Shown: positions 9,366 through 62,562, counted from the stretch's first letter. The stretch: 64,000 nucleotides of DNA from Candidatus Nealsonbacteria bacterium DGGOD1a (GCA_022530585.1 CP092821.1:819465-883464), one strand, 5' to 3'. A program made the numbers and translations. Notes: a model not told the origin generated them from the sequence alone.

Positions 9366-9539
9366 AAAAATATTTCATTTGAAATATTCATGTTGGGGCG
9401 AGAAAATTTTGCGCCAAAGCCAATTTCCTTCGGTTTCTTTTTACGCAACGGCAACTGCTTGGCGTTTATTGATTGAATTTATCCCACGAAACAACCGCGC
9501 CGTACAGCGCGACATATACGCCGTTGTTTAGCGTTTCAA

Positions 9540-9636
9540 CCGCCCATTGAATTGCGGGCCTTCCCGTGATTTTTTTGGCGGAAAGCGGGTCCAAGACTGA
9601 AAACCTAAGATTTTTTTGGCGGATACCTTTTTGGCG
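9540..9636 (+). repeat. ~97-bp island-associated repeat, copy 1 (cgcccattgaattgcgggccttcccgtgatttttttggcggaaagcggg...gatttttttggcggatacctttttggcg)
   Basis: Near-identical to copy 2 (12934..13030, same orientation) and copy 3 (20029..20133, inverted). It contains an internal direct subrepeat gatttttttggcgga. Confidence 0.6.
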
Positions 9637-10057
9637 GCGGATTTCATCCGTGTCCATTAAACAGGCACAGATCAAAAGACGGTTTGAGCGCGTTCAACTT
9701 TTCGATTGAATTCATCCGGAGCGAGCAATCATCGACTTCGATCCCGACCGAATAGTTCCCCTTTTGGGCAAACACATTCCCTCGGGAATACTCGGGATTC
9801 CTTTCGGTCACATTCCGGCCCTTTCGGTTTCGCCAGACCTCTTTTTCCGTTCGGGCTTCGTACCCTAAACGCGAAAAATATCTCATTATGAGCCATTGAA
9901 TCTACGGATGGTGCGGGGTATGAATTTTTAGTAAATCCTCTACTAAGTAGTTCACTTTAATAGAAAATTAATCCAAAGACTTATAGAATTAGGGTACTTG
10001 ACAGCTTGTGGATAACTTCTTGTATTGCGCCATGAAAAATGGTACTATGTAAATAGC

Positions 10058-10591
10058 TCATCTACCATGCGTAGAAGGAGTATCGGATACCGCCCCCAAA
10101 GGCGGTGTTTGTTTATTGTACTTTTCAAACTCTTTTTTATATCTTTTTTTGTTATATTTATCGATAGGAAAAGCGGTACAAAAAAGGTAATAGTCTTTTC
10201 TTTTAGTAATTATAACTATATAGTCCCATTTACCGAAACAGAAACAAATTCTTTTTTGAATTTTACCTTTTTTGTTTTTTCTTTCCGTTTCCCACAATTT
10301 GATATCACCGCAAGGATAATTCTCAATAATAGCTTTCGGCCACTTCAATCTTTCACATCTTCTTAAATCTGGGGTTCTTTCCTCTTCTACCTCTCCCCCT
10401 GAAATCATGTGCCAAAATGTATATTCTTTTCCCTTTAAATAAGGGTCTCTAATACATTTCACCTGTAATTTATCAAATAAGATTTTGTCTTCAAAAAAAT
10501 CTTTTTTGAAACATAAATATAGGGCTTCTAAATACTTTTCCCAATCTCCACCAAAATCATCAAAACACAACAAGTCGGGTAATTTAGTCAT
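10058..10591 (-). CDS. Hypothetical protein, island cargo
   Basis: 177-aa ORF in an AT-rich segment. I recognise no family. Confidence 0.45.
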   Translation of the reverse strand: MTKLPDLLCFDDFGGDWEKYLEALYLCFKKDFFEDKILFDKLQVKCIRDPYLKGKEYTFWHMISGGEVEEERTPDLRRCERLKWPKAIIENYPCGDIKLWETERKNKKGKIQKRICFCFGKWDYIVIITKRKDYYLFCTAFPIDKYNKKRYKKEFEKYNKQTPPLGAVSDTPSTHGR

Positions 10592-10594
10592 AGA

Positions 10595-11246
10595 TCACTC
10601 TTGCGCTTTCCAAACGAAGACATTAAATTTATCCTCTCGATACAAAGTAGATTTTTGTAGCGAATACCCAGACCTTTCTATGATTCTTTTGATAATATCA
10701 ATTTTCGCCTTGCTTGTTTCCAATCCTCGATTTTGATAGCATACAGCTCCTAACAGAAAATCCGTAACTTGCATTAGTTCAATTTCATCAGATCTAACAA
10801 TCTGCATGTTTTCGATGATCTTTCTATCAAAATCATACATGTTATTAGATAAAACTTCCTGTAATTTTTTCACTTTCTGCCCTCCTCTTGTATCTTTGAT
10901 ATCAATGTATATGCGGTATTTATCTTCGGGATTAAAGATGGTTTTGAGCAGAGCAAAATACATTTTATAATACCACTCATCGTGAGTCTGCTTAAACTGA
11001 GAATGGTTCAAAAGGTGCTTGTCGGGAATCACAAGACACCGAAAATGTAAATCATCATTATCAAAAAAATAATCTACAATTTTTTTATAAAAAGCAACCT
11101 TCGCTGGAGAAACCTTTGTCCATTTTATCTCAAAATTAGATCCTATATTGTTTTCTTTTTTTATCTCTCTAATACGTTTAAAAATTTCGTGCGTTTTTTC
11201 TAATGGACACCATAAAGCACCAAAAGCCTGAAGTGGTCGGGGTTGT
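10595..11246 (-). pseudogene. DUF3800-like gene, C-terminal fragment, interrupted by an IS3 insertion
   Basis: The minus-strand frame is open from the IS boundary (QPRPLQAFGALWCPLEK...) with no ATG. The track ORF 10595..11032 starts at a GTG and is only the downstream part. Confidence 0.6.
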
Positions 11247-12067
11247 CAAGACACGGAATTTTGAGGAACCAGATGGTAAGAATTTGTTAAATTTGTTTGC
11301 TTAATCTTCTGAAAATGCACTTCTGCTGGTCTTCGGTAACCTAATGACTGATGGCGGCGCAGATTATTGTAAAGCGGAAAGTATTCATTTAAACCTCTGC
11401 GGGCTTGTCCCACATCTTGGTAGGAGTTTAAGTAAATGTTTTCCCGTTTGACCGTTCGCCATAATCTCTCGGTGAAAATGTTGTCCATATAGCGGCCGCG
11501 CCCGTCCATGGATATTTCGACTTGTTTTGATTCCAGAATTCCCGTAAATTGAGGACTGGTAAAATGGCTGCCTTGATCGCTGTTGAAAATTGCCGGCCGG
11601 CTTTGCGCCAAAGCTTCGTTTAAACATTCCAAGCAAAATCCGATTTCCAAGTTGTTGGATAATTTCCAAGCGATCACATAGCGGGAAAACCAATCAATAA
11701 TCGCGGCCAAATAAGCAAATCCCGTTTCCAGCCGCACATAAGTAATATCGCAACCCCAAACTTGATTCGGCCCGGTAATTTTCAGACCTCTTAACAGGTA
11801 AGGATAAATTTTGTGTTCGTTGTTTTTTAAGCTTAAATCAAGCTTGTTTTTGGGATAAATCGCCTCAATTCCCATGGTTTGCATCAATGCGCGAGTGTGG
11901 CCGCGGCCAATGGGAATTCGGTAGGTTTGATTCAATTCTTCTTTGATCTTCCGACTGCCATAGAACGGGAATCGGGTGTAAATAATATCAATCAAATCCA
12001 TGATTCTTTTGTCTTCTTCGCTCGGCGGCATCGGGCGGTAATACCAGCTGGCGCGGGATATTCCCAA
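11246..12067 (-). CDS. IS3-family transposase OrfB (DDE integrase, rve domain)
   Basis: Motifs WGCDITYV, NSDQGSHFTS and TERLWRTVKRE. Confidence 0.85.
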   Translation of the reverse strand: MGISRASWYYRPMPPSEEDKRIMDLIDIIYTRFPFYGSRKIKEELNQTYRIPIGRGHTRALMQTMGIEAIYPKNKLDLSLKNNEHKIYPYLLRGLKITGPNQVWGCDITYVRLETGFAYLAAIIDWFSRYVIAWKLSNNLEIGFCLECLNEALAQSRPAIFNSDQGSHFTSPQFTGILESKQVEISMDGRGRYMDNIFTERLWRTVKRENIYLNSYQDVGQARRGLNEYFPLYNNLRRHQSLGYRRPAEVHFQKIKQTNLTNSYHLVPQNSVS

Positions 12068-12484
12068 TAATTGGCATTGTCTTTTTAAAGAAATATTTTT
12101 GTTGTCTTCTTCAATCAGCGATATTTTCCGCTCATGGGTTAGGGATTTGCAGTTTTTTTTTAAGCCATTCCAGTTCCATATCTCTTTGGCCGATAATCTT
12201 GTAAAGATTGTCTAATTCCGCCTGACGGCGGATTTGCTCGTCTTTCTCCTTTTTGCGACCGTCCTTGAACAATTCGGCCAGATTATCCAACGCCTGCTTT
12301 TTCCAAAGCCCGATCTGTGTCGGATGAACTTGAAAATCCGAGCTGATTTGGGCCATTGTTTTTTCCTCCCTGATTGCGGTTAACGCCACTTGCGCTTTTT
12401 CTTGGGGAGTAAAACTCCGCGTTTTTTTGTTCATATCTCATCATATCTTTTCCACACCAGTTGGCGCAAATTTCGTGTCTAGAT
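11247..12484 (-). mobile_element. IS3-family insertion sequence (orfA plus orfB, probable -1 frameshift)
   Basis: Imperfect terminal inverted repeats caagacacggaattt / atctagacacgaaattt and a 4-bp target duplication TTGT/ACAA. A slippery TTTAAAA motif lies between orfA and orfB at about 12082-12090. Confidence 0.75.
12132..12434 (-). CDS. IS3-family transposase OrfA (HTH)
   Basis: An HTH region (FTPQEKAQVALTAI) and a leucine-zipper-like C-terminus typical of IS3 OrfA. Confidence 0.8.
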   Translation of the reverse strand: MNKKTRSFTPQEKAQVALTAIREEKTMAQISSDFQVHPTQIGLWKKQALDNLAELFKDGRKKEKDEQIRRQAELDNLYKIIGQRDMELEWLKKKLQIPNP

Positions 12485-12933: not shown

Positions 12934-13030
12934 CCGCCCATTGAATTGCGGGCCTTCCCGTGATTTTTTTGGCGGAAAGCGGGTTCGATACGGAATACCT
13001 AAGATTTTTTTGGCGGATACCTTTTTGGCG
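12934..13030 (+). repeat. ~97-bp island-associated repeat, copy 2
   Basis: See copy 1. It overlaps the annotated 3' end of vsr. Confidence 0.6.
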
Positions 13031-13433
13031 AGTCTTTCAAAAAACTAATAATTCTATTAACCGATCCATTAAAATCACTTTTAATTTGATGTTCCCAAAT
13101 CGTTAGCACTTGCCAACCAATTTTCCTTAACTTTCCCGCAACGAACCTATCCCTCAATTTATTTTTTCTTAATTTATTTTTCCAAAACTCATTTGGAAGC
13201 ACCGATTCCCACCGTGAAAGTTGCCAACCGTGCCAAAAATCACTATGCAAAAAAACCGCCTTTTGAAATTTTAGTAAAGCAATATCTGGCTTACCAATTA
13301 CTTTTTTGTAGTTTTTTTTAAATTTAATGCCTTTCCTTGATACTTCTCGAAAGATTTTCTGCTCAAAATCAGTATTCGACGAATGAATCCTCGACATTAT
13401 TGAACTTCGTTTTTCCTTACTAAATTTATCCAT
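12999..13433 (-). CDS. vsr: Very-short-patch-repair endonuclease (Vsr)
   Basis: GKPDIALLKFQKAVFLHSDFWHGW matches the Vsr catalytic core. It is adjacent to a C5-cytosine methyltransferase. The last ~14 codons run into repeat copy 2, so the true stop may lie earlier. Confidence 0.8.
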   Translation of the reverse strand: MDKFSKEKRSSIMSRIHSSNTDFEQKIFREVSRKGIKFKKNYKKVIGKPDIALLKFQKAVFLHSDFWHGWQLSRWESVLPNEFWKNKLRKNKLRDRFVAGKLRKIGWQVLTIWEHQIKSDFNGSVNRIISFLKDSPKRYPPKKS

Positions 13434-13436: not shown

Positions 13437-13979
13437 TTAAAAAATACTTTTTGACTCCGCAGCTAATTCTTGAGTTAAACTTAGATTCCATGCTCGCATA
13501 GTTTTATGCCATCTTCTGAATTTTAAGAATTGCTCCCAAGTAAGCTCTAAAATTTTCTTTGGCTTATAGTGTTTATCGATTAAAACGATAATCACATACT
13601 CAAACTTTTTTTCCGGATTTTTATCGGTTTGATCACCGCAACCGTAAAAAACGCCCGTAAGATTCCCTGGTTCTGAAATTGTTTTAATACTATAACGCTC
13701 GCCTCTCCTGCTAATGGCATCTACATTTTGCGTTCCCTCCGGGGCCGCTTGAAGCTTAGCTAAGCCTGGCGTTTTATTGTATATTTTAATTGCCAAAAAT
13801 TCGCCGCGTTCGCCAACTATATTTCTAGTCCTCACTAATCCTCGTTCTTTCAATTTAAGACCGATGTATGCGTAGAGTGTCCAAATTTCCTCATCCGATA
13901 ACTCATTCGCCGCATTCAACACATCGTCAAATTTTAGCAACAAATCTCCTTTTTTTATGTTCTTTTCCATATACTCCAT
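13437..13979 (-). CDS. Putative Type II restriction endonuclease (PD-(D/E)xK-like)
   Basis: 180 aa. It is divergent from the m5C methyltransferase and co-directional with vsr. GERGEF...VDAIS...SIKT is a plausible PD-(D/E)xK arrangement. No family could be assigned. Confidence 0.45.
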   Translation of the reverse strand: MEYMEKNIKKGDLLLKFDDVLNAANELSDEEIWTLYAYIGLKLKERGLVRTRNIVGERGEFLAIKIYNKTPGLAKLQAAPEGTQNVDAISRRGERYSIKTISEPGNLTGVFYGCGDQTDKNPEKKFEYVIIVLIDKHYKPKKILELTWEQFLKFRRWHKTMRAWNLSLTQELAAESKSIF

Positions 13980-14020: not shown

Positions 14021-15049
14021 ATGACTATCTCGCGTAAAAAAAAGATAAAAGTAATCGACCTTTTTGCCGGTATCGGCGGTATTGGCCTCGCCTTTAAACG
14101 CGCGGGTTTTGATATTGTTTATTCAAATGATTTTGACAGGTTTGCTTGTAAAACATATGAAGCTAATGTCGGAAAGATTGATTATCGCGATATCAAAAAA
14201 GTCAAACCAGAAGAACTACCGATCTATAATGTTTTATTGGCTGGATTTCCGTGCCAACCGTTTTCCGCTCTGGGCCATCGTTTAGGATTTGAAGATCCGA
14301 GAGGTAATTTATTTTTTGAAATAGAAAGGTTACTGCACACAAACAAACCAGATGCTTTTTTTCTCGAGAATGTTCGTCATCTTAAAACTCATAACGACGG
14401 GAATACTTTCCGTGAGATCTCCAAAGCTTTGGAGGGTCGTTTAGGTTATAAATTATTCGTAAATATTTTAAACGGAAAAGATTTCGGCTTACCGCAGAGC
14501 AGAGAGCGGTTTTATTTGGTAGGCTTCAGGGAAAATGTATCATTCACGTTTCCGAAGGTAACAAATAAGGAATTACCGCGCTTGGATTCGATCCTTGAGG
14601 AAAACGTCGACCCCAAATATTACCTTTCCGAAAAATATTTAACTGGGCTAGAAAAACACAAAGAGAGACATCGAGGCAAAGGCCACGGATTCGGATATGA
14701 AATACTAGATCCGCAAGGTATCGCTCACACTCTTGTCGCTGGTAACATGGGCAGGGAAAGAAACTTGATCAAAGATAAACTGGTGGAATCGTATGATCAT
14801 GAAATTTTGACTCCAAGAAATAAAAAGGGTGTTCGCAAATTAACGGTTAGAGAATACGCTCGCCTTCAAGGATTTCCAGATTCTTTCGTTTTCCCGGTTT
14901 CAGACAACCAAGCATATAAACAAATAGGTAACTCTGTCTGTGTACCAGTAGTGCATGCAATCGCAAAAAAAATGAAAAAGGTTCTTGAAAGCACCTATTC
15001 TTTTCAACAAAATCAAGATTTAATGCCAGGAGAACATACAGCGAACTAA
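14021..15049 (+). CDS. dcm: DNA (cytosine-5)-methyltransferase
   Basis: Motif I DLFAGIGG, motif IV GFPCQPFS, motif VI ENV and QSRERFY. Confidence 0.9.
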   Translation: MTISRKKKIKVIDLFAGIGGIGLAFKRAGFDIVYSNDFDRFACKTYEANVGKIDYRDIKKVKPEELPIYNVLLAGFPCQPFSALGHRLGFEDPRGNLFFEIERLLHTNKPDAFFLENVRHLKTHNDGNTFREISKALEGRLGYKLFVNILNGKDFGLPQSRERFYLVGFRENVSFTFPKVTNKELPRLDSILEENVDPKYYLSEKYLTGLEKHKERHRGKGHGFGYEILDPQGIAHTLVAGNMGRERNLIKDKLVESYDHEILTPRNKKGVRKLTVREYARLQGFPDSFVFPVSDNQAYKQIGNSVCVPVVHAIAKKMKKVLESTYSFQQNQDLMPGEHTAN

Positions 15050-15054: not shown

Positions 15055-15900
15055 TTAGTGAAATTTCGGCTCCTTGCGAAAACACTTATAACAAAGTGTT
15101 TTTAAGTTATTAATTTCGTTATTTTTCGGATCATTATCGATATGCCGAACGAACAGATCTTTACCATGATCTTTTTGGCTTGATCCCCTGTCTAACCCGC
15201 ATCTCGTACATTTAAAGCCATCCCTTTCTATGGCTTTTTCTCTATTCCCACCGAAATGCTTAAGATTCCAAGCCTCTTTCATTTTTTTCTTAACTTCTGG
15301 TCGTTGAGCGTATTTTTTTGAATATTCTTTATTTTTTTGTTTTATTTTCTCCGCATTTCTTTCATTGGAAGCTTTAACTAAATCTTTGAAATAATCGCTT
15401 TTGAAATAACAGTTACGACAAAGACCATAGCTGTGATGAGGTGTTGTGGTGGTTCCGCAATTTCGACATTTTAAATAAAATCTGCTCCACCGTTGTTTAT
15501 ACTTATCGGAATTTTTACCCAAGATATCAATTATCTCTGGAAAATTTTTTTTAATAATTTTTAAAGAAATTTTCTCATCCGATAAAAATTTGTTCAAAGA
15601 ATATTGAGTGGATGCTTTTTGCATTAATTCATTTCTTCGATTTTCATAAGATCCGTATTTCTTTTCGTCTCGTTTTGTCTCATGCGATTTTTTAATATCA
15701 TCAACAAACGAAGAAACATCAATTACCTGCCCCGCGTTTACGGATTGATGAATTTCATACATAATCGCCTTACTTAGTAATTGGCGAATACGCTCTCTGG
15801 TTATCCCGTGCTTTTGGCCTATTTCCTCAAGCGTGCATCCTTGCTTATAAAGCTCAAGAATATCCAAGAGTCGTGTTATGTTTTTTTCCGCTTCCTCCAT
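15055..15900 (-). CDS. HTH (sigma-70 region-4-like) - CxxC zinc ribbon - HNH nuclease
   Basis: N-terminal LEEIGQKHGITRERIRQLLSKA. Middle CRNCG...CRNC. C-terminal HNH (CTRCG...VRHID...NLKTLCYKC). Confidence 0.7.
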   Translation of the reverse strand: MEEAEKNITRLLDILELYKQGCTLEEIGQKHGITRERIRQLLSKAIMYEIHQSVNAGQVIDVSSFVDDIKKSHETKRDEKKYGSYENRRNELMQKASTQYSLNKFLSDEKISLKIIKKNFPEIIDILGKNSDKYKQRWSRFYLKCRNCGTTTTPHHSYGLCRNCYFKSDYFKDLVKASNERNAEKIKQKNKEYSKKYAQRPEVKKKMKEAWNLKHFGGNREKAIERDGFKCTRCGLDRGSSQKDHGKDLFVRHIDNDPKNNEINNLKTLCYKCFRKEPKFH

Positions 15901-15905
15901 ATTGG

Positions 15906-17735
15906 TTAATGTGATTCATCGGGATTATACGCATCGTCAAACAGAAAATTTCCTAAGTCTTTGGCTGCCGCTTCATGCACCTTTGAAATCATAGTTCCAA
16001 GAATTTCTGCATCTATCGTGTCGGCGTTGAATCGATCTGGATCTTTTTTTGCCAACCGTTGGAGCGCCTCCTTAATAAAAATATCTATATACCTCTGGAA
16101 AAGAAAGTCTCTCCATCTTAAGTGTTCGGCTCCGTATTTTTCTATGATCGCTGCAGCAAGCGGGCTCGAAGTATTAATCCAATAGATTCCCGCATCAACA
16201 TCTTGTATCCTTTGATATACGACAGGCTGACGCGGATCGAGTTGCACCTTTTTCCCTCCATTGAGAGGATCATCGTCAAAACTCGACAGCTTAACCATAG
16301 GAAATTTACCCGTTTTCTTTGGTTTGTCTCCGCCTCCCTGCTGATCGCCAGATCCACCGCCCTTGGTTCCGCCTGAATCACCAGTTCCCGTTCCTCGTCC
16401 GCCCCCGGACCCACCAGAACCAAATCCTCCGCCGGAACCCACCCCTGGCCCGACCAGCACTTCCGCAAACAATTGGCGCATGAATTTATTTTTCCATTCG
16501 TTCAAAAAATCATTATAAGTGGAAGACAATTTTTTGTTAATTTCTTCTTGCTCTTTATCTTCTTGATCAGCGATTCTTGCGGCCAATTCATCCACCTGAG
16601 ACCTTATCCATTGAAGCAATGCGTTACTCCTATCGTTCGGAATAAGCTTTTCCCTGTCATTGCTAACGGAAGAATTCGCTGGTTCTTCAAGAATCGGACA
16701 TTCACATTCCCCATAGAGAAAAACCGCCTGCGTATAATAGCGAATACCCATTTCGTATATCCTGTAAGAACCGATAACCCCAAGTTCGCCAATGATATCG
16801 ACTCTATTAAGATCGGAAAACCGACCGCCCCGCTCTAAGGCAACCTCCGAAGTGCGAAGAATTAACCGGCCACCAGGATATTTCAAATTTTCCATTTCTA
16901 TAACCAGTTTTTCCGCATCTTTTTCCAAAATCAATTTGTCGGGTATCGGAATAACAATAGGTTCTTCGAATCCTGGACGAGGTTTAATTTCGTCTGGCAA
17001 CAATCTTTCGTATAATATTACATCGTTTTGACTTACGGAAAGCGGAATCCGCATCAGCACTCTTCGAGCCTGCGGATGGTTTTTCAATTTTTCACAAATT
17101 CGTAACGCTTTAATTTTTGTTTTCATTCCAACCGGACTAACCCCTCTCGCTACCGTAAACCCCGTCTCACCATTTAAAATTGATTCTTTCAATTCTGACG
17201 GAACAATTTTTTCTATATTGGCAAACTTTATGGCTTCGTTTACGTTAAATGGTATGTCCTTAAAAGGCTTGTTTTTTTGATAATTTGCAAAACCATATTT
17301 TTTATTTTCACTAAAACCAAAAACATTAAGTTTTCCGTCTCGGAAAGTAATAAAATACGATTCGTCAAACATTTGCCTCATATAAAACTTACCGCCGTTT
17401 CCGTGGCCTCCATAAGTTTTTTTCTTCATACCTCGTTTTGCCGCCTCTGGATCGCCCCACCATTGAAAAGCTTCCTGAATATCCAACGACGTCATACCCA
17501 CAAAATCGATATTTTCAACTGTCGCTTGTCCATCTTCTTCGTCGGTAAATCTTAAGACAACATATTGCTTGTTATCTGGCATTCCTTTTCTGATATACGC
17601 ATCCGCCGAATTTTTTACTAATTCTGAAATACCTTTTTCGTGATCGAATTTGAATTCTCTTCCCCAAATTTCCAAAAGATTGTCATGAAATTTATTCTGC
17701 TCTTCCTGAATGACAAACGTTTTCGTTTTAGCCAT
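15906..17735 (-). CDS. GHKL-family (Bergerat fold, MORC/paraMORC-like) ATPase with a Gly-rich linker and a C-terminal uncharacterised domain
   Basis: N-box ELVKNSADAY, G1-like IDFVGM and G2 YGGHGNGGKF. A low-complexity GS-rich stretch (GPGVGSGGGFGSGGSGGGRGTGTGDSGGTKGGGSGDQQGGG) lies at about aa 430-475. It is co-operonic with the HNH gene. Confidence 0.7.
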   Translation of the reverse strand: MAKTKTFVIQEEQNKFHDNLLEIWGREFKFDHEKGISELVKNSADAYIRKGMPDNKQYVVLRFTDEEDGQATVENIDFVGMTSLDIQEAFQWWGDPEAAKRGMKKKTYGGHGNGGKFYMRQMFDESYFITFRDGKLNVFGFSENKKYGFANYQKNKPFKDIPFNVNEAIKFANIEKIVPSELKESILNGETGFTVARGVSPVGMKTKIKALRICEKLKNHPQARRVLMRIPLSVSQNDVILYERLLPDEIKPRPGFEEPIVIPIPDKLILEKDAEKLVIEMENLKYPGGRLILRTSEVALERGGRFSDLNRVDIIGELGVIGSYRIYEMGIRYYTQAVFLYGECECPILEEPANSSVSNDREKLIPNDRSNALLQWIRSQVDELAARIADQEDKEQEEINKKLSSTYNDFLNEWKNKFMRQLFAEVLVGPGVGSGGGFGSGGSGGGRGTGTGDSGGTKGGGSGDQQGGGDKPKKTGKFPMVKLSSFDDDPLNGGKKVQLDPRQPVVYQRIQDVDAGIYWINTSSPLAAAIIEKYGAEHLRWRDFLFQRYIDIFIKEALQRLAKKDPDRFNADTIDAEILGTMISKVHEAAAKDLGNFLFDDAYNPDESH

Positions 17736-17736
17736 A

Positions 17737-18369
17737 TTATTTTATTGCCTTGTAGGTAATTAATTCTTCGAACTTATTAAACAAAAAACTATGATACTGA
17801 ATAATTTTGTCGTAAAGGGGTTTTTTTTCGTCCGATTTCAACGATTTCAACTCCTCAACAACGCTTTTCATTGTCTCAACTCTTCCCATAAAATCATTTT
17901 TACTTGTTCTGACAGTGACCCCCAAATAATTATAAAAATCAGTATCCAATATTTTTTCCCGTTCATCGTTTATAAAAAGACCCTGAAACCCGTCCAGGAT
18001 TAAAATTCTTGCGACTTCTTTTTCCGCATGTCTCGACAAACGATTATCGCTTCTTATATGTTTACCGGCAACCGCATCTTTAATCTGGGTAGCAATGGAG
18101 ACACCACGATCTGTCAAGGTAAATATTTTGTTTCCAGCCGTAACCAATCCTTTCTTCTTCGCATCGTAAAGTGGTTTATGCACCATATCGCCAGAATCAG
18201 GATATTCCTTATATCCCCTCAAATGAAATTCCTCGGGATAATCCTTAAACAGCTTAACCACAATATCTTCAAACCGAATGTTGCGCCGGGTACCCCCAGA
18301 AAGGTTTAACAACGCAAGTAATACTTTTTGAAAACGCGAAAGACTTTGTGATTTTTCCATAATATTCAA
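17737..18369 (-). CDS. Hypothetical protein with a probable N-terminal winged-helix domain. Third gene of the GHKL operon.
   Basis: 210 aa. FQKVLLALLNLSGGT...IRFEDIVVKLF looks wHTH-like. It lies 1 nt from the GHKL gene. Confidence 0.45.
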   Translation of the reverse strand: MNIMEKSQSLSRFQKVLLALLNLSGGTRRNIRFEDIVVKLFKDYPEEFHLRGYKEYPDSGDMVHKPLYDAKKKGLVTAGNKIFTLTDRGVSIATQIKDAVAGKHIRSDNRLSRHAEKEVARILILDGFQGLFINDEREKILDTDFYNYLGVTVRTSKNDFMGRVETMKSVVEELKSLKSDEKKPLYDKIIQYHSFLFNKFEELITYKAIK

Positions 18370-18374
18370 AATAT

Positions 18375-18611
18375 TTACAATTTAAATTCTCCTGTTTTTT
18401 TGGAAAAAATAAATTTAGATTTCGTTTCTTTGATTTTTTTTTCGATTTCAGAAAATATTTTATCTATATCTTCTTCATTATATTCATAAACATGTCTATT
18501 CGCGCAATTTCCCAGAACTTTTAGACGCTTTAAAACCATGTTTGTGCGTAAAGTTGCCAAACGACAAAACCTTTCGCGTGAACTTTCATTTTTTGGTGAC
18601 TGCTTGCTCAT
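18375..18611 (-). CDS. Small hypothetical protein, first gene of the GHKL operon
   Basis: 78 aa, basic, 5 nt upstream of the next gene. No recognisable family. Confidence 0.4.
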   Translation of the reverse strand: MSKQSPKNESSRERFCRLATLRTNMVLKRLKVLGNCANRHVYEYNEEDIDKIFSEIEKKIKETKSKFIFSKKTGEFKL

Positions 18612-18703: not shown

Positions 18704-20278
18704 ATGTTAAATTATTTTCTATACGCCAGAAAATCTACGGATGTTGAGGATAAACAAGTCCTATCTATTGAGGCGCAGCTTTCCGAATTGCGCGATTTTG
18801 CTACGCGCGAGAATTTGACCATCATCGAGACTTTCATTGAAAAACAATCGGCCAAGATTCCGGGAAGGCCGATCTTCAACAAGATGGTCGAACAGATAGA
18901 GAAAGGCCGGGCGCAAGGCATCATTGCTTGGCACCCCGACCGGTTGGCCCGCAACAGCGTTGACGGCGGCAAGATCATCTATCTTGTCGATACCGGCACA
19001 ATCGCCGCCTTGCGCTTCCCCACCTTTTGGTTTGAACCCACGCCGCAGGGAAAATTCATGTTGAATATTTCTTTTGGCCAAAGCAAATATTATATCGATT
19101 CGCTTTCGGAAAATACCAAAAGAGGGCTTCGCCAAAAGTTAAGGCGCGGCGAATATCCGGGCCGCGTACCGGTTGGTTATATAAACGATTCGCGCGATAA
19201 AAGTATTGCGGTTGATAGAAAGAAAGCGAAAATCATCAAAGAAGCGTTTGAATTGTACGCCAAGAACGAATCAAGGCTCGAAGATATTTCTGCTTTTCTC
19301 GCGCAAAACGGAATCGTAACCAGAGGAACTAAAAGATGCGTCAAACGGAGCCAAGTGTCCCATATTTTATTAAATCCTTTCTACTACGGACATTTCCGGT
19401 TTTTAGGCGAAATCCACGAAGGAAAACACGAGCCAATTATCACAAAGAAACTTTTTGATAAAGTGCAAGAAGTTTTGAGAGATCGCGGCAAACCGCAAAG
19501 GAAAGCGAATGACCCGAAACCGCTTTGCGGTTTGCTTCATTGCGGAAATTGCGGAATGGGAATAACCGCCGAAGTCAGAAAAGGCCATACCTATTACCGC
19601 TGTACCAAAAAATCAAAAACCGTTAAGTGTTTGGAAAAGTATATCCGCGAGGAAGAACTCGACCGGCAGTTGTCCGAAGAATTGCAAAAATTTTCTTTGC
19701 CCGAAGATTGGGCAAATCGATTATCGCAAATGACCGCAAAAGAAGAACAAGGAATCTCTCAATCTTCCGCCGTCCTCACTCAAGCATCGCGCGATGAGCT
19801 ACAAGACATTAAAACCAAGCTCCCGCGCCTTTTGGACAGCTATCTCGATCAAGACGTCGACCGCGAGGACTATCGCCAAAAGAAGGCCGATCTTATGAGC
19901 CGGAAGAAAACGCTGGAAGAGAAAATCGGCGATCTTGAGCAGGGCCGTAATAGTTGGCTCGGACCGATGCGAGAATGGCTAAATGAAGCGCAAAATATAG
20001 GGAAAATCGCTCAAAATTCGGATCTTTCCGCCAAAAAGGTATCCGCCAAAAAAATCTTCGGCTCGGACCTGCATCTTTCCGCCAAAAAAATCACGGGAAG
20101 GCCCGCAATTCAATGGGCGGCGGTCGCCGCCGCGAAAAATTTTCCTCCTAAAACTGACTTAAGTTACTTAATGGAGCGAGTGAAGGGAATCGGACCCTCG
20201 TCTCGACCTTGGGAAGGTCATGTACTGCCACTGTACGACACTCGCGAGTTCGTCCCGCCGTGGCGGGACAATTTTTAA
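18704..20278 (+). CDS. Large serine recombinase (resolvase catalytic domain, recombinase domain, zinc ribbon, coiled coil)
   Basis: YARKSTDVEDK (Ser nucleophile), the resolvase fold, CGLLHCGNCG...YYRC zinc ribbon, and a coiled coil. The C-terminus runs into repeat copy 3, so the true stop may lie earlier. Confidence 0.85.
   Translation: MLNYFLYARKSTDVEDKQVLSIEAQLSELRDFATRENLTIIETFIEKQSAKIPGRPIFNKMVEQIEKGRAQGIIAWHPDRLARNSVDGGKIIYLVDTGTIAALRFPTFWFEPTPQGKFMLNISFGQSKYYIDSLSENTKRGLRQKLRRGEYPGRVPVGYINDSRDKSIAVDRKKAKIIKEAFELYAKNESRLEDISAFLAQNGIVTRGTKRCVKRSQVSHILLNPFYYGHFRFLGEIHEGKHEPIITKKLFDKVQEVLRDRGKPQRKANDPKPLCGLLHCGNCGMGITAEVRKGHTYYRCTKKSKTVKCLEKYIREEELDRQLSEELQKFSLPEDWANRLSQMTAKEEQGISQSSAVLTQASRDELQDIKTKLPRLLDSYLDQDVDREDYRQKKADLMSRKKTLEEKIGDLEQGRNSWLGPMREWLNEAQNIGKIAQNSDLSAKKVSAKKIFGSDLHLSAKKITGRPAIQWAAVAAAKNFPPKTDLSYLMERVKGIGPSSRPWEGHVLPLYDTREFVPPWRDNF
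20029..20133 (-). repeat. ~97-bp island-associated repeat, copy 3 (inverted relative to copies 1 and 2)
   Basis: The reverse complement matches copies 1 and 2, including the shared upstream gcggcggcgaccgccgcccattg. Confidence 0.6.
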
Positions 20279-20330: not shown

Positions 20331-20720
20331 TCAGTCTTCTTTTTGTGATGTATTTACTATTTTCTGGAATATCATCGTCAATTCTTGCGCTTCCTGCCAC
20401 AATTTTCGTATTTCTTCCTTGTTTTCCGGAAAACAAACCGCGATCATCCTTAACCAATGTTTTGTTTCTTGACATTCTTTCTTGCAAATATAAATTTTGT
20501 TCCTAAAGTCCTTCTTTGAGCTGGCGCCATTTGCTTCCATATAATTCGCACCGACACTCGTGCCCGACCTTACGATTTGGCTGATAAGCGGTTTTGAAAT
20601 CGTATCTTGTTTTACCGCTCTGCAAAAGATTATAACACTCTCGCCAAATTTAGCGGTGCGTTCTTCCAGATCGTAGCTTTTGCCACCATTTGAAACATTG
20701 CAATTTGAAACATTCATTGA
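20331..20720 (-). CDS. Four-helix-bundle protein (23S rRNA intervening-sequence protein family, TIGR02436-like)
   Basis: LISQIVRSGTSVGANYMEANGASSKKDFRNKIYICKKECQETKHWL matches the family signature. The start is probably at MNVSN (20720). Confidence 0.6.
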   Translation of the reverse strand, partial: SMNVSNCNVSNGGKSYDLEERTAKFGESVIIFCRAVKQDTISKPLISQIVRSGTSVGANYMEANGASSKKDFRNKIYICKKECQETKHWLRMIAVCFPENKEEIRKLWQEAQELTMIFQKIVNTSQKED

Positions 20721-20749
20721 AAATTGGAATTTGAAAATTAAAAATTGTA

Positions 20750-21340
20750 AATGACCCTGCGGCAAGACCGCAGGGCGTTCGCAGCTACAATTCAAACAAT
20801 CGTAACTGGCTCACGTCTTTTGGTCTGCCTTGGTTTTGAATGTATCGCTCAATAACTTTCCTATTACCGCGTGCGCTGATCGTAGCGATATAATAGCCGT
20901 CTGTCCAGAAATCTCCACCCCAGAGTTCTTTTTTAATTTCGGGAACTTGCCGGAACACCTCGCGCGCGGTAATGCTTTTTATTATTTTGATAACCTGGCC
21001 GCCGGAATACTTCGGCAGGAATCTTGCCAGAATATGGGCGTGGTCTTGGTCGAATCCCACATGGCTGATCTCAATGGCGTACCGTTCCATAAATCCTTTC
21101 AGGCTCTCGACAATTGCGGCAATCACCTTTTCGTTCAGTAATGCTTTGCGATATTTGACCGTAATCTGGATGTGGTAATAACATTCGGAAACATTGTGGT
21201 ACCAACGCCAGATATCCCGCTTTTCTTGCTCCATATTGGCTTATTGTAACACGGACGCGCTTTCGCGCGTGATGGTAGGGGGATATCCCCCTACCAAACC
21301 ACCCCCTTAAGTTGTTCCCTGCGGCAAGACCGACAGGGTG
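20750..21340 (-). mobile_element. IS200/IS605-family element (tnpA only)
   Basis: Subterminal hairpins ccctgcggcaagaccgcaggg (about 20755-20775) and ccctgcggcaagaccgacaggg (about 21317-21338), plus the internal hairpins cgcgctttcgcgcg and gtagggggatatccccctac. Confidence 0.75.
20785..21234 (-). CDS. tnpA: IS200-like Y1 (HUH) transposase TnpA
   Basis: The HUH motif HAHIL and a catalytic Y region (DGYYIATIS). 149 aa. Confidence 0.85.
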   Translation of the reverse strand: MEQEKRDIWRWYHNVSECYYHIQITVKYRKALLNEKVIAAIVESLKGFMERYAIEISHVGFDQDHAHILARFLPKYSGGQVIKIIKSITAREVFRQVPEIKKELWGGDFWTDGYYIATISARGNRKVIERYIQNQGRPKDVSQLRLFEL

Positions 21341-21755: not shown

Positions 21756-21837
21756 ATGGATTCAAAATAACAAAATTTTCAATTACCAATTTACTTTAAA
21801 TTACGAAATAGCAAATTTTGAAATCAATTTTCGGCGT

Positions 21838-22400
21838 AATCGCGGAAATTTGATTTCAAAATTTGCGCGGTTACCGCCGCGTTTGGTGAAAATTGACTTC
21901 CCAAAAGCTGAAGTCAAATTTCCCCAAACGCTAATTTCGTAGTTCAAAGGAATTTAAATGCAACACCGCGAATCCGTTGAGAATTGACTTCCCATTCGCC
22001 TAGCGGCGAAGCTGAAGTCAAGTCTCCACAGATTTGCTTTGGCATTATCTTCAGCGAACGATTAACTTGGATCGCTTGACTTACGCCTCGAAATATCCGA
22101 TAAATAATACATTGGATATCCGCCGAACCGATAAGTTATTTTACCTCAAAAACAAACAAATATGAAATCCAAAAAAATCATCAAGGGCGTCTGGAAAGTT
22201 ATGATCATTTTTGTGGCCTTGAGCACCGTCCTGTCCTTGGTCGCGGTCGCGCTCTACTGAAGAATCCGTTAATTCAACTAAAAAAACGCCGTACCTGGCG
22301 TTTTTGCGTAATTATAATTTGGCTATTATACCATCGATTGCCGCAAATTCGTTGAGGATTGACCTCCCAAAAGCTGAGGTCAAACCTCAACGAATTTGCT
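21838..22400. repeat. Cluster of hairpin repeats in a 670-bp non-coding region (three copies of attgacttcccaaaagctgaagtcaa-type hairpins plus flanking arms)
   Basis: Copies at about 21885-21925, 21978-22030 and 22345-22397. The last forms a 22-bp near-perfect stem. Confidence 0.5.
22161..22259 (+). CDS. Candidate 32-aa hydrophobic micro-protein (MKSKKIIKGVWKVMIIFVALSTVLSLVAVALY)
   Basis: A short ORF with a single predicted TM helix inside the repeat-rich intergenic region. It has a weak RBS and is below the ORF-track cut-off. Confidence 0.25.
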
Positions 22401-25934: not shown

Positions 25935-26325
25935 CCCTAAAAACGGAAAACCCAAGCCGGCAATAAGCCGAATTCTGTGTCGCCCCGCCGGATTTGGCGG
26001 GACCAAGCAATCATTTATCTGGACCGCAAATTGCTTCGCGGCCTCAAGCGGTTTACTTTTCACCCCGCTTTGGGCGGGGTGTTTAACCTTGCACCCGAGC
26101 AAGGATTTAGCCGTTTCACCCCTATGTCGCCATAGGATTAATCCCCGGCCTTTCGGCTTGGGATTCTTCCGCCTTTCGGCTCGAGCGTCACTGTTCGCAC
26201 CTCTACCTCGCGGTCGAAGGGAATTACCCTCTGCTTTTTTCCCTCGCCTTGCGGTTCGGGAAGAGTGTTCGGACTTTCCTCTCTCGAAGATTTTAATCTT
26301 CGGGAGCGATTGCGTACCAGCTTGG
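25935..26325 (-). ncRNA. rnpB: RNase P RNA, bacterial type A
   Basis: Minus strand: P4 5' strand GAGGAAAGUCCGAAC and P4 3' strand ACAGAAUUCGGCUUA, with GG-to-AA / CC-to-UU covariation. Also the conserved GGGGUGAAA and GGUUAAACACCCCGCC blocks, a P3 hairpin (cgaagattaaaatcttcg), and P1 pairing aaaacccaagcugg / ccggcuuggguuuu. Confidence 0.85.
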
Positions 26326-59176: not shown

Positions 59177-59953
59177 TTATTCTTTGGGGTCCGACAAAAC
59201 AAAAATCGTTTGCCACGCCAGCCATTGAATTCCCGGAATCTTCAACAAAACCGCGTCCACGATTTCAAAAAACCCGAGCACCGGCTTGAAAACCGGCGTA
59301 TGCCGGAACGGTACGGCCAATAAGGCGGCCAGATAAAAAAATTTTATGTCAATTTTACCAAAATTTTTTTTGGCGGCGTAAATCGATTCTTTGGTCAAAA
59401 TATGGTTTGCCTCCCATTCGGTTCGCAATTTCGGCGTCATTTTGCGGTAAAGCTGGAACACCGGATTATAGGCCAAGGGTTCACCGCAAATGACCTGGCC
59501 GCCGGGCTTCAAAACCCGCGCCAATTCCGGATAAACTTTTTTTAAATCAAGATGATGCAAAACTCCGGTACAAACAATATAGTCGAACGAATTGGCGGCA
59601 AATGCCATATTCTCCCCGTCCATCACCAAAAAGAGCGGCTTGTTTTCCTGCCCTGATTTCTGCGCCTTTTCGTTGGCGAATTTTATTGAGACATCGGAGA
59701 TATCAATGCCGGTGATATCGGCTCCCAGCGACGCCAAAGAAACGCTCACATCGCCTTCACCGCAACAAAAATCCAGAAATTTTTTGCCCGGAGCAATCCT
59801 TTGCGCCACCCAATTATCAATATGCCGGCGGCTTTTGCGAGTTATTGAATAAAACTTTTTATTATCTGCGGCGGCCTCCGCGTCATCAGCCCGGCGCAAC
59901 ATATTCTTCAAATTGTTCGCGTGCTCCCTCTCTTTGATTTTTCGCTGTTCCAT
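59177..59953 (-). CDS. Class I SAM-dependent methyltransferase
   Basis: FLDFCCGEGDVS (motif I), then DISDVS. The start is probably at MEQRK. Confidence 0.65.
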   Translation of the reverse strand: MEQRKIKEREHANNLKNMLRRADDAEAAADNKKFYSITRKSRRHIDNWVAQRIAPGKKFLDFCCGEGDVSVSLASLGADITGIDISDVSIKFANEKAQKSGQENKPLFLVMDGENMAFAANSFDYIVCTGVLHHLDLKKVYPELARVLKPGGQVICGEPLAYNPVFQLYRKMTPKLRTEWEANHILTKESIYAAKKNFGKIDIKFFYLAALLAVPFRHTPVFKPVLGFFEIVDAVLLKIPGIQWLAWQTIFVLSDPKE

Positions 59954-59964
59954 TTTGATATTAT

Positions 59965-60972
59965 TTATTTCGTAAAGATTAATTTTAAAAAACCGTTCAT
60001 TGATCCCAGCGCGTAAGCCAAATGGCGCGATCCAAACGCGACGGGCATCAAAAACGCGTAGCGCCAATCGCGCTCTTTTACGGAAATTTTAACAGAAAAA
60101 AACAAACTAAGCAAAATATAAAACGCGGCCAAAAACCACAAAACCGGCCAAAAACCCGGCCAAAAAAACCCGGCAACCGCGAATAAAACCGCAAATAAAA
60201 AACACGAAGCGGGCAAATAGTGCCTTAATCTTAGCGATTCCTTGGTAAATTTGCGCGAAAAGATAACCCATGTGCCGCCGTAAAAATCGTGAATAAAAAA
60301 ATCTTTAAGGTCGGACCGCGCGTAATAGCGGCAAATAATGTCGGGAGCCAGCAATATTTTACCGCCGGATTTTTTTAATCTGACATTAAATTCCATATCT
60401 TGGCCGCGCGTCAATTTTTCATTGAAAAAACCTATTTTGTCGAAAATTTCTTTCCGGTAACAACCGCCAAAAACCGTATCCACCCATTTGGGTTCATTGG
60501 ACTTCATGCGGAAATGGGAATCGCCCACGCCAAACGGACTGGATAAAGCCCGAACAATCGCCTTGCCCATTATCGTGCCATTTCTCGATAGAGTAATCAT
60601 GCGGCCACCGACATTATCGGCACCGTATTCATTCAGATAGTAAACACATTTGGACAAATAATCATTTTGATAATCAGCGTGCGCCCCCATTATAGCGACA
60701 ACTTCCCCCTTGGCACTTTGTATGCCGAGGTTAAAAGCAAATGGAGTGAATATTTTTTCATTATCCAGCATCCGAATCCGGCGGTCTTTTTTTGCGTAAC
60801 TTTCCAAAATCCGGCGCGTGCCATCCGTACTGGCGCCATCGACAACAATAATCTCAAAACGGCCGCCGGGATAATCCTGCGCCAAAACCGCATCAAGACA
60901 TTTTGCGATGTGCTTTTCCTCGTTGCGGCAAGGAATTACAATTGTTACCAATGGCAATGTAATTTTGTCCAT
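59965..60972 (-). CDS. Family 2 glycosyltransferase with a C-terminal TM extension
   Basis: VTIVIPCRNEE...IVVDGASTDGT, then hydrophobic C-terminal helices. Confidence 0.75.
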   Translation of the reverse strand: MDKITLPLVTIVIPCRNEEKHIAKCLDAVLAQDYPGGRFEIIVVDGASTDGTRRILESYAKKDRRIRMLDNEKIFTPFAFNLGIQSAKGEVVAIMGAHADYQNDYLSKCVYYLNEYGADNVGGRMITLSRNGTIMGKAIVRALSSPFGVGDSHFRMKSNEPKWVDTVFGGCYRKEIFDKIGFFNEKLTRGQDMEFNVRLKKSGGKILLAPDIICRYYARSDLKDFFIHDFYGGTWVIFSRKFTKESLRLRHYLPASCFLFAVLFAVAGFFWPGFWPVLWFLAAFYILLSLFFSVKISVKERDWRYAFLMPVAFGSRHLAYALGSMNGFLKLIFTK

Positions 60973-60976
60973 ACCA

Positions 60977-62545
60977 TTACTTTAACCGATAAATCTCCAA
61001 CCCGGCAACTTTTCCCATGCTGATATCGGGTTTGTTTTTTAAAAATTCAGGCGCGGCGCCGGCGGCCTTCCAAACAATATAATAGTCAATGTCGCAATCA
61101 AACAGTTGCGAACGCAAATCTTCCCGGCCAAGTTCGAAATTTGGAATACCGTAATACTGTCCCCGAAACTGAAACGCCAGATAAAGCGACCTTGACCATT
61201 CGGCATTGGAAGCGATTTTCCCGTTCACGCCGGAATTTTCCAACTGTAAATACATCCGCCGGTCTTCCCGGCCCGTATCCACGCGGGACACAAGTTTGTA
61301 TATTGGCATCAGCGTAAAAGAAAAAATGGCAAAAAACAATACCGCCGATTTTATTTTCGGATTCTGTTTTAACCATCCAAAATCATCAACGATTTTCGCC
61401 GCCAATACCAACAGCAATATCTGCGCAACCCAGATATAGCGTTCTTCAATATGAATCGGAAGATACCCGGCCGTTAATATCAAGATCGTCAAAACCAAAC
61501 AAATATGGTCGCGGATAAAAATCTTTCGCGAACCGCTTTTGAAAATTATAACGATCGAAATAACCAGCGCGGCCAGCGCCAACAGCGAAAACCGCCCGTA
61601 GATGCCGATGAACGCCTTTCCGGAGTTAGCGATCGCATTAAGCGCGTAATGCCGGATTTTTTCGTCGAACGGTACCTTTTGAGCCACCGGAACCGCGATC
61701 AATCCCGGATCATCCCACGCGCTCAACGAATATTCATCCGCCGGCGGCAGAAAGCCAAGATAATCCAGCGGATCTCCCTCCGCGCCCGGACCGTAGGCCG
61801 CCAGATTATACGCTCCGGTACGACCGATGGTGAATTCTCCGTATTTGGCGGAGATCAACGCGATCCAAACGCCGCCGATAATCGCGAACGCCATTGTTCC
61901 GGCGATAAAATTGCGGAAAATATTTTTTCTTTCCGCAACCGTTTTTGACCGCCAGAAGAAAATCGCGCCAAACAGCGCGAAATGAACAATAAAAAATAAA
62001 AAGGCGTAAGTTTTGGCAAGATACGCCAATCCGCCCAAAATGCCGCACCACAACCCGTAATTGTTAGCCATGCAATCCTCGCGGAAAATAAAACTTAAGT
62101 AAAAAATTATAATCGCTGACAACAACAAATCCGGCGTGGTCAGCGACACGGCGCAATAAACCGCGATCGGAACCAACGCGGCAATAATCATTTTTTTGGC
62201 GCGCCCGGCCAGATCAAAACAATCCAAAAGTTTATTTGACGCGATCAGCAATCCCAAACCGGCCAAAATGCCAACGATCTTCGCCGCGACCATCGCCGGA
62301 ATCCCAAACGCGATAAAGATCGCGATCAACCAAGAATATAACGGGCTCCAAAAACCGTTGACCGCGGGCCAAAAATTTCCCGCGGCGTATTTTTGCGCGA
62401 TCGAAAGATAGGCCAGTCCGTCGGTATTCCACTGGTAACGGTAAAAAAAGGCGAACAACAACGCCAGAGACAAATACACCACGGCCGATAAAAACTCAAA
62501 CTTGTTAATTTTTTTAAAAATCGAAGCCATTGAATTTGTTGGCAT
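60977..62545 (-). CDS. GT-C-fold glycosyltransferase-like polytopic membrane protein (ArnT/PMT_2-like)
   Basis: About 12 TM helices with a conserved N-terminal loop. Confidence 0.55.
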   Translation of the reverse strand: MPTNSMASIFKKINKFEFLSAVVYLSLALLFAFFYRYQWNTDGLAYLSIAQKYAAGNFWPAVNGFWSPLYSWLIAIFIAFGIPAMVAAKIVGILAGLGLLIASNKLLDCFDLAGRAKKMIIAALVPIAVYCAVSLTTPDLLLSAIIIFYLSFIFREDCMANNYGLWCGILGGLAYLAKTYAFLFFIVHFALFGAIFFWRSKTVAERKNIFRNFIAGTMAFAIIGGVWIALISAKYGEFTIGRTGAYNLAAYGPGAEGDPLDYLGFLPPADEYSLSAWDDPGLIAVPVAQKVPFDEKIRHYALNAIANSGKAFIGIYGRFSLLALAALVISIVIIFKSGSRKIFIRDHICLVLTILILTAGYLPIHIEERYIWVAQILLLVLAAKIVDDFGWLKQNPKIKSAVLFFAIFSFTLMPIYKLVSRVDTGREDRRMYLQLENSGVNGKIASNAEWSRSLYLAFQFRGQYYGIPNFELGREDLRSQLFDCDIDYYIVWKAAGAAPEFLKNKPDISMGKVAGLEIYRLK

Positions 62546-62562
62546 TTAATTTTATTTCGCAA

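Follow-up and report, generated by a model that had tools for sequence, protein, structure and literature searches.

What is the extent, and what is the likely role, of the four-gene operon found at positions 15055-18611 of a 64,000-nt stretch of DNA from Candidatus Nealsonbacteria bacterium DGGOD1a (GCA_022530585.1 CP092821.1:819465-883464)? This whole stretch is referred to below as the window, and all positions are given within it. The four intact open reading frames (ORFs), named A, B, C and D, are located on the minus strand and are packed with intergenic gaps of 5, 1 and 5 nt. In a preliminary description of the window they were taken to be an uncharacterised four-gene unit, in which a GHKL ATPase is paired with an HNH nuclease. 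The analysis presented here points to a larger unit, in which the four genes are joined by a C5 cytosine DNA methylase and the very-short-patch repair endonuclease Vsr, and, tentatively, to a role in ATP-dependent defence linked to DNA methylation. The components of this unit (A-D from the ORF listing) are:

18375-18611, minus strand: gene A, first of the operon, small helical protein of 78 aa
17737-18369, minus strand: gene B, N-terminal winged helix and C-terminal helical domain, 210 aa
15906-17735, minus strand: gene C, GHKL ATPase with S5-fold domain, 609 aa
15055-15900, minus strand: gene D, sigma-70 region-4 helix-turn-helix (HTH), zinc ribbon and HNH domain, 281 aa
14021-15049, plus strand: C5 cytosine DNA methylase (PF00145, E=2.5e-92)
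12999-13433, minus strand: Vsr very-short-patch repair endonuclease (PF03852, E=1.5e-19)

The number, strand and spacing of the four minus-strand genes, as described earlier, are borne out by the ORF listing and by the homologs, and each of A, B, C and D is, judging from its homologs and conservation, a real gene. The same A-B-C-D order, with genes overlapping or abutting, is found in dozens of species. In the window the methylase is convergent with D and ends 5 nt away from it. Homolog look-ups together with a scan of one genome per species yielded 80 loci, which were compared with the proteins of the window, and linkage was counted in the 48 non-redundant genome loci that have at least 3.5 kb on both sides. 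Near C, B is an almost constant neighbour (45 of the 48 well-flanked loci), A is found in 27 and D in 18, and a protein carrying the sigma region-4 (sigma-r4) motif is present in at least 32. A C5 methylase and/or Vsr is located within 5 kb of C in 36 loci (75%) and a large serine recombinase within 10 kb in 14; Vsr is present in 24.

The linked genes occur in three arrangements. In Parcubacteria, the window included, A-B-C-D is followed by a convergent, often overlapping methylase and then by Vsr. In Microgenomates, Vsr and a divergent methylase are found upstream of A-B-C-X0, where X0 is a protein that takes the place of D. In soil phyla the order is [X0]-B-C-methylase-Vsr, with co-directional, overlapping genes. 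An Elusimicrobia locus (L030) has A-B-C-methylase-X0-Vsr, all on one strand, and in a Tepidisphaeraceae locus (L053) B and C are followed directly by a methylase-Vsr fusion. Distances between C proteins are correlated with those between the linked methylases (Mantel r=0.76, a value reached in 0 of 999 permutations), which argues for long-term co-inheritance rather than repeated chance capture. The 75% linkage, the three arrangements and this co-diversification together suggest that the methylase at 14021-15049 and Vsr at 12999-13433 belong to the system. The unit is therefore, as read from these comparisons, one of six genes, i.e., A, B, C, D, the C5 methylase and Vsr, and the limit of four genes drawn in the preliminary description is too narrow. 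Because A, B and C are kept even in a subfamily with 25% identity, A-B-C would be the ancient core.

This outcome also changes the reading of the neighbouring genes, which had been taken for a Type II restriction-modification module with Vsr. A methylase and Vsr are indeed present, but they do not form a separate module, since both belong to the cassette, and the presumed restriction endonuclease is a 180-aa protein of a methyl-directed Type II restriction enzyme family (13437-13979, minus strand; PADLOC mREase_II, E=5e-58) that is unique to this genome, with no homolog in the other 85 loci. Homologs of this protein are found in Dcm-Vsr operons on Rhizobium plasmids and in a Bacillus prophage region, and the gene is probably a separate module or insertion. 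No cognate restriction endonuclease that would cut the unmethylated site of the methylase was identified, the methylase being present and the adjacent 180-aa protein belonging to the methyl-directed family. A methyl-directed enzyme beside a C5 methylase is an odd pairing.

The central protein of the unit is C, for which more than 893 homologs were found (clustered at 90%), all annotated "hypothetical". Neither A, B nor C gives a significant model in Pfam, NCBIfam, PADLOC or PHROGs, in agreement with the earlier statement that the operon is uncharacterised. In comparisons with Pfam the sole relevant match of C is HATPase_c_3, which is weak (E=0.017) and below threshold in 15 of 25 family members, and searches of the PDB by single sequence and by profile gave low-complexity linker noise or nothing. 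No variation was seen in the GHKL motifs themselves (E38, N42, D77xxG80 and G109-GHGNGGKF-117) among 25 homologs or among 55 loci that span over 10 phyla. Here, E38 is the catalytic Glu of the N-box, N42 the Mg-binding Asn, D77 the G1 Asp, and GGHGNGGKF the G2 ATP lid. A model of C obtained with AlphaFold2 (AF2) on the basis of 25 homologs (mean predicted local distance difference test score, pLDDT, 81.7) was compared with the PDB using Foldseek, which returned TRAP1/Hsp90, MORC2, SMCHD1, MutL and GyrB with E-values from 9e-9 to 3e-5 over 400-480 columns, and likewise Topo VI-B. The Bergerat-fold motifs noted earlier in the 609-aa protein are thus confirmed by conservation and by the structural comparison. 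The predicted layout of C is as follows:

16641-17735, minus strand: residues 1-365, GHKL (Bergerat) ATPase and S5-fold transducer (Foldseek, invariant motifs)
16458-16634, minus strand: residues 368-426, single long helix of 59 residues, probable coiled coil (DSSP on the AF2 model)
16311-16457, minus strand: residues 427-475, Gly-rich linker, predicted to be disordered (pLDDT <50)
15909-16310, minus strand: residues 476-609, family-private C-terminal domain (conservation)

On the strength of the motifs and the model, C is predicted to be a GHKL (Bergerat-fold) ATPase with an S5 transducer and intact catalytic motifs, and its modelled layout recalls that of MutL, with the ATPase module followed by a long helix, a disordered linker and a C-terminal domain. 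In a subfamily of about 700 aa the alignment shows a beta-rich insert of ~100 aa in place of the Gly-rich linker. The C-terminal domain has no match in the PDB or Pfam; it carries an invariant polar set (D489, Q508, R509, D512, N521, R542 and R548). A phmmer search of 1.84 billion representatives returned this domain in 131 clusters (50% identity), in each case as the C-terminal part of a protein of this GHKL family. The MORC S5 motif GhXhhpXXRhl, sought with a regular expression, did not match in any of the 25 family members. A housekeeping GHKL enzyme (GyrB/ParE, MutL, HtpG or a histidine kinase) was considered and rejected: there is no NCBIfam or PDB sequence match, the gene is found in 195 of 185,579 species, and its neighbours are a methylase, Vsr and a recombinase. 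The proposal that C is a MORC- or MutL-like ATPase outside housekeeping functions is accordingly upheld, given the patchy distribution and the lack of GyrB, ParE or MutL synteny.

The remaining members of the core are smaller. Gene A is kept in 45 loci with the motif FKRLA..RT...LGN.SN...Y.Y...KIF, its product is apparently a two-helix protein, and it is 38% identical to the small gene product of the distant A-C-B trio on an Ensifer plasmid; A is missing from the Verrucomicrobia/Acidobacteria/Actinobacteria variant of the cassette. For B, 178 homologs were found. The winged helix that had been assigned to this protein is confirmed at residues ~12-100, at the N-terminus, followed by a helical domain at 113-209. 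Because the closest homolog (P0121, 93% identical) is 207 aa long, the true start of B may be the ATG at 18360.

For the fourth protein, D, 33 homologs were found, and a protein of Ca. Nealsonbacteria DGGOD1a, a member of the Candidate Phyla Radiation/Patescibacteria, is 100% identical to it. The domains of D are:

15751-15873, minus strand: residues ~10-50, sigma-70 region 4.2-like HTH TLEEIGQKHGITRERIRQL (Sigma70_r4, E=2.3e-8)
15391-15483, minus strand: residues ~140-170, zinc ribbon with four Cys, C145, C148, C161 and C164 (invariant alignment columns)
15067-15255, minus strand: residues ~216-278, HNH (HNN-type) domain on a CxxC...CxxC scaffold (PHROGs, PADLOC)

The HTH profile of D matches region 4 of SigA/RpoD in the PDB, and the recognition helix GITRERIRQL is nearly identical to that of primary sigma region 4.2. 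This helix presumably retains every residue that contacts the -35 element in primary sigma factors, as mapped from sigma-4/DNA structures (e.g., 1KU7). An invariant dipeptide, W138-S139, is found just before the zinc ribbon. The HNH domain matches the PHROGs HNH endonuclease (E=4e-8), the PADLOC HEase/ZorE models (E ~1e-5) and, weakly, HNH_3, and its core is intact in the window (C231/C234, H252, N260/261, N265 and C270/C273). The earlier domain assignment therefore stands for the sigma-r4 HTH (E=2e-8), the zinc ribbon and the presence of an HNH domain, but the HNH cannot be called canonical, as Phe takes the place of the final His of the motif in D (an HNN-like variant) and as the core is not kept throughout the family.

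In other lineages the fourth slot is filled differently. X0 replaces D after C in Microgenomates and is located before B in soil phyla (genes at loci L011, L012 (2452-4461), L019, L044 and others). This protein has one or two RNA_pol_A_CTD domains (E=1e-23 to 8e-29), Sigma70_r4 (E=7e-15) and HARE-HTH (E=1e-7), the last being the fold of the delta subunit of RNA polymerase (RNAP). X0 thus unites three polymerase-subunit modules in one defence-associated protein. The sigma helix is common to D and X0 (75% identity over 24 aa), and the segment of X0 comprising the C-terminal domain of the RNAP alpha subunit (alpha-CTD) and sigma-r4 also matches MzaA and the central region of PglW. A third type of reader, a SeqA_N + Mrr_N protein, is found directly upstream of B in Solirubrobacterales loci (L067:8676-9347 and relatives). 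From these sequence comparisons D is one of several fillers of the fourth slot, and its HNH domain is dispensable across the family. When the loci are divided by the state of the HNH, those with an intact domain number 6 with and 6 without a methylase, and those with a degenerate domain 15 with and 4 without, counts too small to establish a trend. Because the HNH core is lost in many D proteins and X0 is nuclease-less, a GHKL-plus-HNH restriction enzyme cannot describe the family, and the pairing stressed in the preliminary description falls away as a defining feature; such a description may fit this particular locus.

Relatives of C were found in the one-genome-per-species scan in more than 10 phyla, in a patchy pattern that is typical of mobile defence genes. 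They include the Candidate Phyla Radiation (CPR), Nitrospirota, Acidobacteriota, Verrucomicrobiota, Planctomycetota, Actinomycetota, Myxococcota, Ignavibacteria and Elusimicrobia. A distant subfamily of C with ~750-800 aa and 25-31% identity has the trio in the order A-C-B (L087-L090 and L094); L094 is located on a conjugative Ensifer adhaerens plasmid (NZ_CP118613.1, record 59223-62548), with a DNA methyltransferase and an AAA ATPase nearby. The family is rare in viral contigs, with 6 matches in 2.9 million. In other genomes the neighbours are of defence type, i.e., GmrSD_N/HEPN, AAA_15/21, ResIII with an endonuclease, PIN-MazE, LmuA, Type III methylases and PDC-M48B. With these neighbours and the recombinases, the setting of the cassette fits that of a defence island, here and in other genomes, as had been suggested earlier.

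What, then, would such a system do? The reading favoured here, tentatively and at slightly less than even odds, assigns the cassette to the MORC/paraMORC (MutL-like GHKL) kind, as a defence system that depends on ATP, is linked to methylation and is carried on a serine-recombinase island beside tRNA-Gly; it is drawn from gene content and conservation. According to this model, the methylase would mark host DNA with 5-methylcytosine (m5C), and Vsr would repair the T:G mismatches that result from m5C deamination, thereby limiting the mutational cost. B would tether a dimer of C to DNA through its winged helix, and C would close around DNA upon ATP binding, in the manner of MutL and MORC, to act as a clamp or as a licensing switch for the effector. 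The fourth protein, here D, would provide DNA targeting through its sigma-4 HTH, and in this genome the HNH domain of D would cut the strands of DNA that lacks the m5C mark. A would be a small accessory or regulatory subunit. Because many relatives have lost the HNH or carry a nuclease-less reader, the effector step common to the family must lie elsewhere; Vsr and the C-terminal domain of C are candidates, as is a block that needs no cleavage, of the kind known from BREX.

A number of observations weigh against this model. The general-base His of the HNH is kept in 30 of 56 D proteins, and the whole HNH core is deleted in ~20 of 31 genome loci, where the four Cys remain and most keep the methylase. 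The X0 variants and the minimal B-C-methylase-Vsr variants have no recognisable restriction nuclease except Vsr. About 25% of the well-flanked loci have no adjacent C5 methylase, including six A-B-C-D loci with an intact HNH, which are awkward for a simple logic of cutting unmethylated DNA, and the distant A-C-B subfamily is found without adjacent Dcm-Vsr. Further, B and C stay 40-55% identical as the linked methylases drop to 25-35% identity, so that sequence specificity cannot reside in B-C. Finally, the enrichment of defence genes in the flanks is a raw observation, given without a background rate for comparison.

The conservation of B-C whatever the methylase subfamily is what would be expected of a repair accessory, which is the first alternative to be considered. 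Here, B-C would serve as a dedicated analogue of MutL, by which Vsr is recruited to, or activated at, T:G mismatches arising from the m5C of the linked methylase, i.e., a self-contained module for methylation and repair on mobile elements that protect themselves with an orphan methylase. The MutL-like architecture of C (GHKL and S5, disordered linker, C-terminal domain) is consistent with this role, as is the finding that Vsr is the sole nuclease of the minimal versions and, in L053, is fused to the methylase directly after C. In addition, E. coli MutL stimulates Vsr (cited in PMC2292703). On this account, however, B-C should not occur without Dcm/Vsr, as it does in about one-quarter of the loci and in the distant A-C-B subfamily; A, the HNH of D and the HARE-HTH and Mrr_N readers have no part in it; the defence-island context is left unexplained; and most bacterial Dcm-Vsr pairs function without such a partner. 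A repair accessory is therefore considered unlikely.

A departure from the favoured model of a different kind, to which a similarly low probability is assigned, is that there is no restriction-enzyme action at all, and that the RNAP look-alike in the fourth position either baits polymerase-hijacking phage proteins or steers a MORC-like clamp onto the promoters of m5C-free DNA. If true, the system would correspond in bacteria to the silencing by MORC and DNA methylation known from eukaryotes, and its HNH would be an expendable extra.

Taken by itself, the bait is rather improbable. The sigma-r4 HTH of D, or the alpha-CTD, sigma-r4 and HARE-HTH modules of X0, would be bound by phage proteins that hijack RNAP, and this binding would switch on the GHKL ATPase and its effector (the HNH here), with targeted cleavage or abortive infection as the outcome; the part of the methylase would be limited to guarding against collateral damage, or it would be a separate passenger. 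The near identity of the D/X0 recognition helix to that of primary sigma region 4.2, the union of three RNAP-subunit modules in X0, the recurrence of the same module in the defence proteins MzaA and PglW, and the existence of methylase-free A-B-C-D loci are all compatible with a sensor of this kind. Yet the proposal is pure inference, an HTH with sigma-4 residues may just bind DNA, and the 75% linkage to a C5 methylase, together with the co-diversification, is left unexplained.

Silencing without cleavage, taken by itself, is very unlikely. In this case the B-C clamp, like the eukaryotic MORCs, would compact or entrap DNA in a methylation-aware manner. The sigma-4/alpha-CTD protein would select promoter-like sites at which the clamp keeps foreign DNA from being transcribed or replicated, with the HNH being optional. 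Loss of the HNH core in most D proteins and the nuclease-free X0, in a system that is otherwise conserved, agree with this proposal, and MORC2 and SMCHD1 are among the best structural matches of C. BREX, too, is a methylation-based defence for which no nuclease is known. C, however, lacks the MORC signature motif, and Vsr and the polar C-terminal domain of C could still cleave DNA. A chance assembly of neighbours in a mobile island, or insertion of D after C as an independent homing endonuclease, to which the match of D to the PADLOC "homing endonuclease" model and to phage HNH families and the insertion sequence (IS) elements of the island might point, is effectively refuted by the synteny data: the A-B-C-D order recurs with overlapping or abutting genes, the sigma-r4 helix of D is also that of X0, the protein found in this position in other lineages, and A, B and C recur in the 25%-identical subfamily.

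How does the favoured defence model relate to systems already described? The cassette gave no match to a named system in PADLOC-DB v2, in line with the earlier impression of an unfamiliar gene order. The idea behind it is not new. Iyer, Abhiman & Aravind (2008) predicted that prokaryotic MORC and paraMORC GHKL ATPases act in restriction-modification systems, described neighbourhoods with cytosine methylases (Dcm), Vsr and, for paraMORC1, HNH, and proposed MutL-like DNA looping or licensing in which an ATP-driven change is coupled to a nuclease (PMC2292703). A combination of GHKL, Dcm and Vsr, with or without HNH, was thus described computationally at that time, so that the cassette cannot be called a wholly novel category; it belongs to the GHKL-methylase kind predicted in that work. 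The likeness to the paraMORCs extends to the GHKL and S5 domains, a family-specific C-terminal extension, a methylase, Vsr and sometimes HNH nearby, and a sporadic, laterally mobile distribution. The fit to paraMORC1 is loose and by description only (its own C-terminal extension, HNH co-occurrence; PMC2292703). Unlike the MORCs and paraMORCs, the C family is found without the MORC S5 motif, below the HATPase_c_3 threshold and without an SF2 helicase partner, and it has obligate partners, i.e., A, the winged-helix B and a sigma-r4 protein, that are not part of the paraMORCs as described. In the literature searched, descriptions appear to be missing for the obligate partners A and B, for the swappable sigma-r4 subunit, for the private C-terminal domain of C and for the stepwise loss of the nuclease among D proteins. 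X0-like proteins might be mentioned in the HARE-HTH paper of 2012 (PMC3272235).

With MutL, the mismatch-repair protein that stimulates Vsr and MutH, C shares the architecture, the N-terminal structural match and the genomic coupling to Vsr and a methylation mark. Nothing in the sequence of C resembles the dimerisation/endonuclease domain at the C-terminus of MutL, however, MutS is missing, and the distribution is patchy and mobile. Mza resembles the cassette as a methylase-associated candidate defence system that contains a GHKL ATPase and the sigma-70-family protein MzaA, matched by the sigma-r4 of D and X0; identity with Mza was rejected, as the cassette does not match. Residues 143-279 of D align with ZorE, the HNH effector of type II Zorya (E ~2e-5); Zorya type II itself was rejected, with no ZorA or ZorB among the ORFs of the island and a ZorE score of 18 against a cut-off of 600 bits. 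BREX/Pgl systems likewise mark self by methylation, X0 has a segment that matches PglW, and both may act without an obligatory nuclease; the cassette differs from them in having no PglX, PglZ or BrxC/L homologs and a methylase that is C5, not N6. The HEF_HK/Response_reg_2 pairs consist of a small protein and a GHKL protein, related to the paraMORCs, beside type II C5 methylases (Bellieny-Rabelo et al. 2021, PMC8011034). Identity with these pairs was rejected, with no PF19191 or PF19192 match at E<=1 and with B a winged helix rather than a receiver domain. Septu (AAA15 ATPase and HNH) and Gabija (OLD ATPase-Toprim and helicase) were rejected as well, none of A-D giving a PADLOC match to PtuA/B or GajA/B at E<=1, and so was VcSduA/paraMORC3-Shedu, whose DUF4263 nuclease fusion is absent here.

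In the window, the cassette region is bounded by tRNA-Gly(ccc) on one side and by an ABC-transporter gene on the other. The GC content is 0.33-0.45 in the island and ~0.48 in its flanks, and this difference, together with the serine recombinase and the tRNA-Gly, is consistent with the AT-rich mobile island noted in the preliminary description. The elements found in and next to the island are:

10058-11032, minus strand: two ORFs matching a PADLOC candidate defence pair, PDC-M04B (E=7e-56) and PDC-M04A (E=8e-55)
11246-12434: IS3 element, directly upstream of the PDC-M04A/B ORFs
13437-13979, minus strand: the 180-aa methyl-directed enzyme-family protein discussed above
18704-20278, plus strand: large serine recombinase, divergent from gene A (Resolvase, Recombinase and Zn_ribbon_recom)
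20172-20245, strand opposite to that of the serine recombinase ORF: tRNA-Gly(ccc)
20331-20795, minus strand: "23S rRNA intervening sequence protein" four-helix-bundle gene, directly outside the tRNA-Gly boundary
20785-21234, minus strand: IS200/IS605-type Y1 transposase, overlapping the start of the four-helix-bundle gene

The match to PDC-M04A lacks the first ~86 profile positions, and this gene is probably shortened at its N-terminus. A repeat of ~100 nt, 95-100% identical, is found in three copies in the window, all confined to the island: 9540-9636 (plus), 12934-13030 (plus) and 20028-20132 (minus). The latter two are inverted and flank the 7-kb segment from Vsr through the serine recombinase, and the copy at 20028-20132 is located 40 nt from the 3' end of tRNA-Gly; the repeats may be att-like or inversion sites. 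The serine recombinase ORF reads across this repeat into the tRNA-Gly gene of the opposite strand, and the last ~60 residues of the ORF are probably not native. Owing to the repeat, the peptide AKKITGRPAIQWA of this ORF recurs in a spurious ORF at 9466-9675. A scan for promoters and terminators gave results no better than those for shuffled sequences, and the published Ca. Nealsonbacteria genome paper does not discuss the locus. Farther away, the intergenic region upstream of lepA contains several near-perfect palindromes (21811-21866 and 22343-22399) and a repeated AAGCTGAAGTCAAA unit, and at 25948-26325 (minus strand) a bacterial RNase P class A RNA (106 bits, gathering score 100) overlaps several spurious long ORFs.

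To a specialist, a GHKL-methylase defence candidate would in itself be unsurprising. The favoured model would nevertheless add to the MutL/MORC-like GHKL class linked to prokaryotic DNA methylation a defined multi-gene system with an A-B-C core, a swappable sigma-r4 partner and Dcm-Vsr. Little is known of the immune repertoires of CPR/Patescibacteria, and candidate defence systems that are concentrated in this group, as this one is, are few. RNAP promoter-recognition modules are reused in this system, as they are in MzaA and PglW, which points to a principle common to methylation-associated defence. From the natural series of nuclease-active D, nuclease-dead D and reader-only X0 one could learn how effectors are coupled to a GHKL clamp, and the same series could show whether the partnership of MORC and DNA methylation in eukaryotes has a functional prokaryotic antecedent. 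With its conserved trio, its concentration in CPR, its RNAP-like partner modules and its dispensable nuclease, the system is a good target for experiments.

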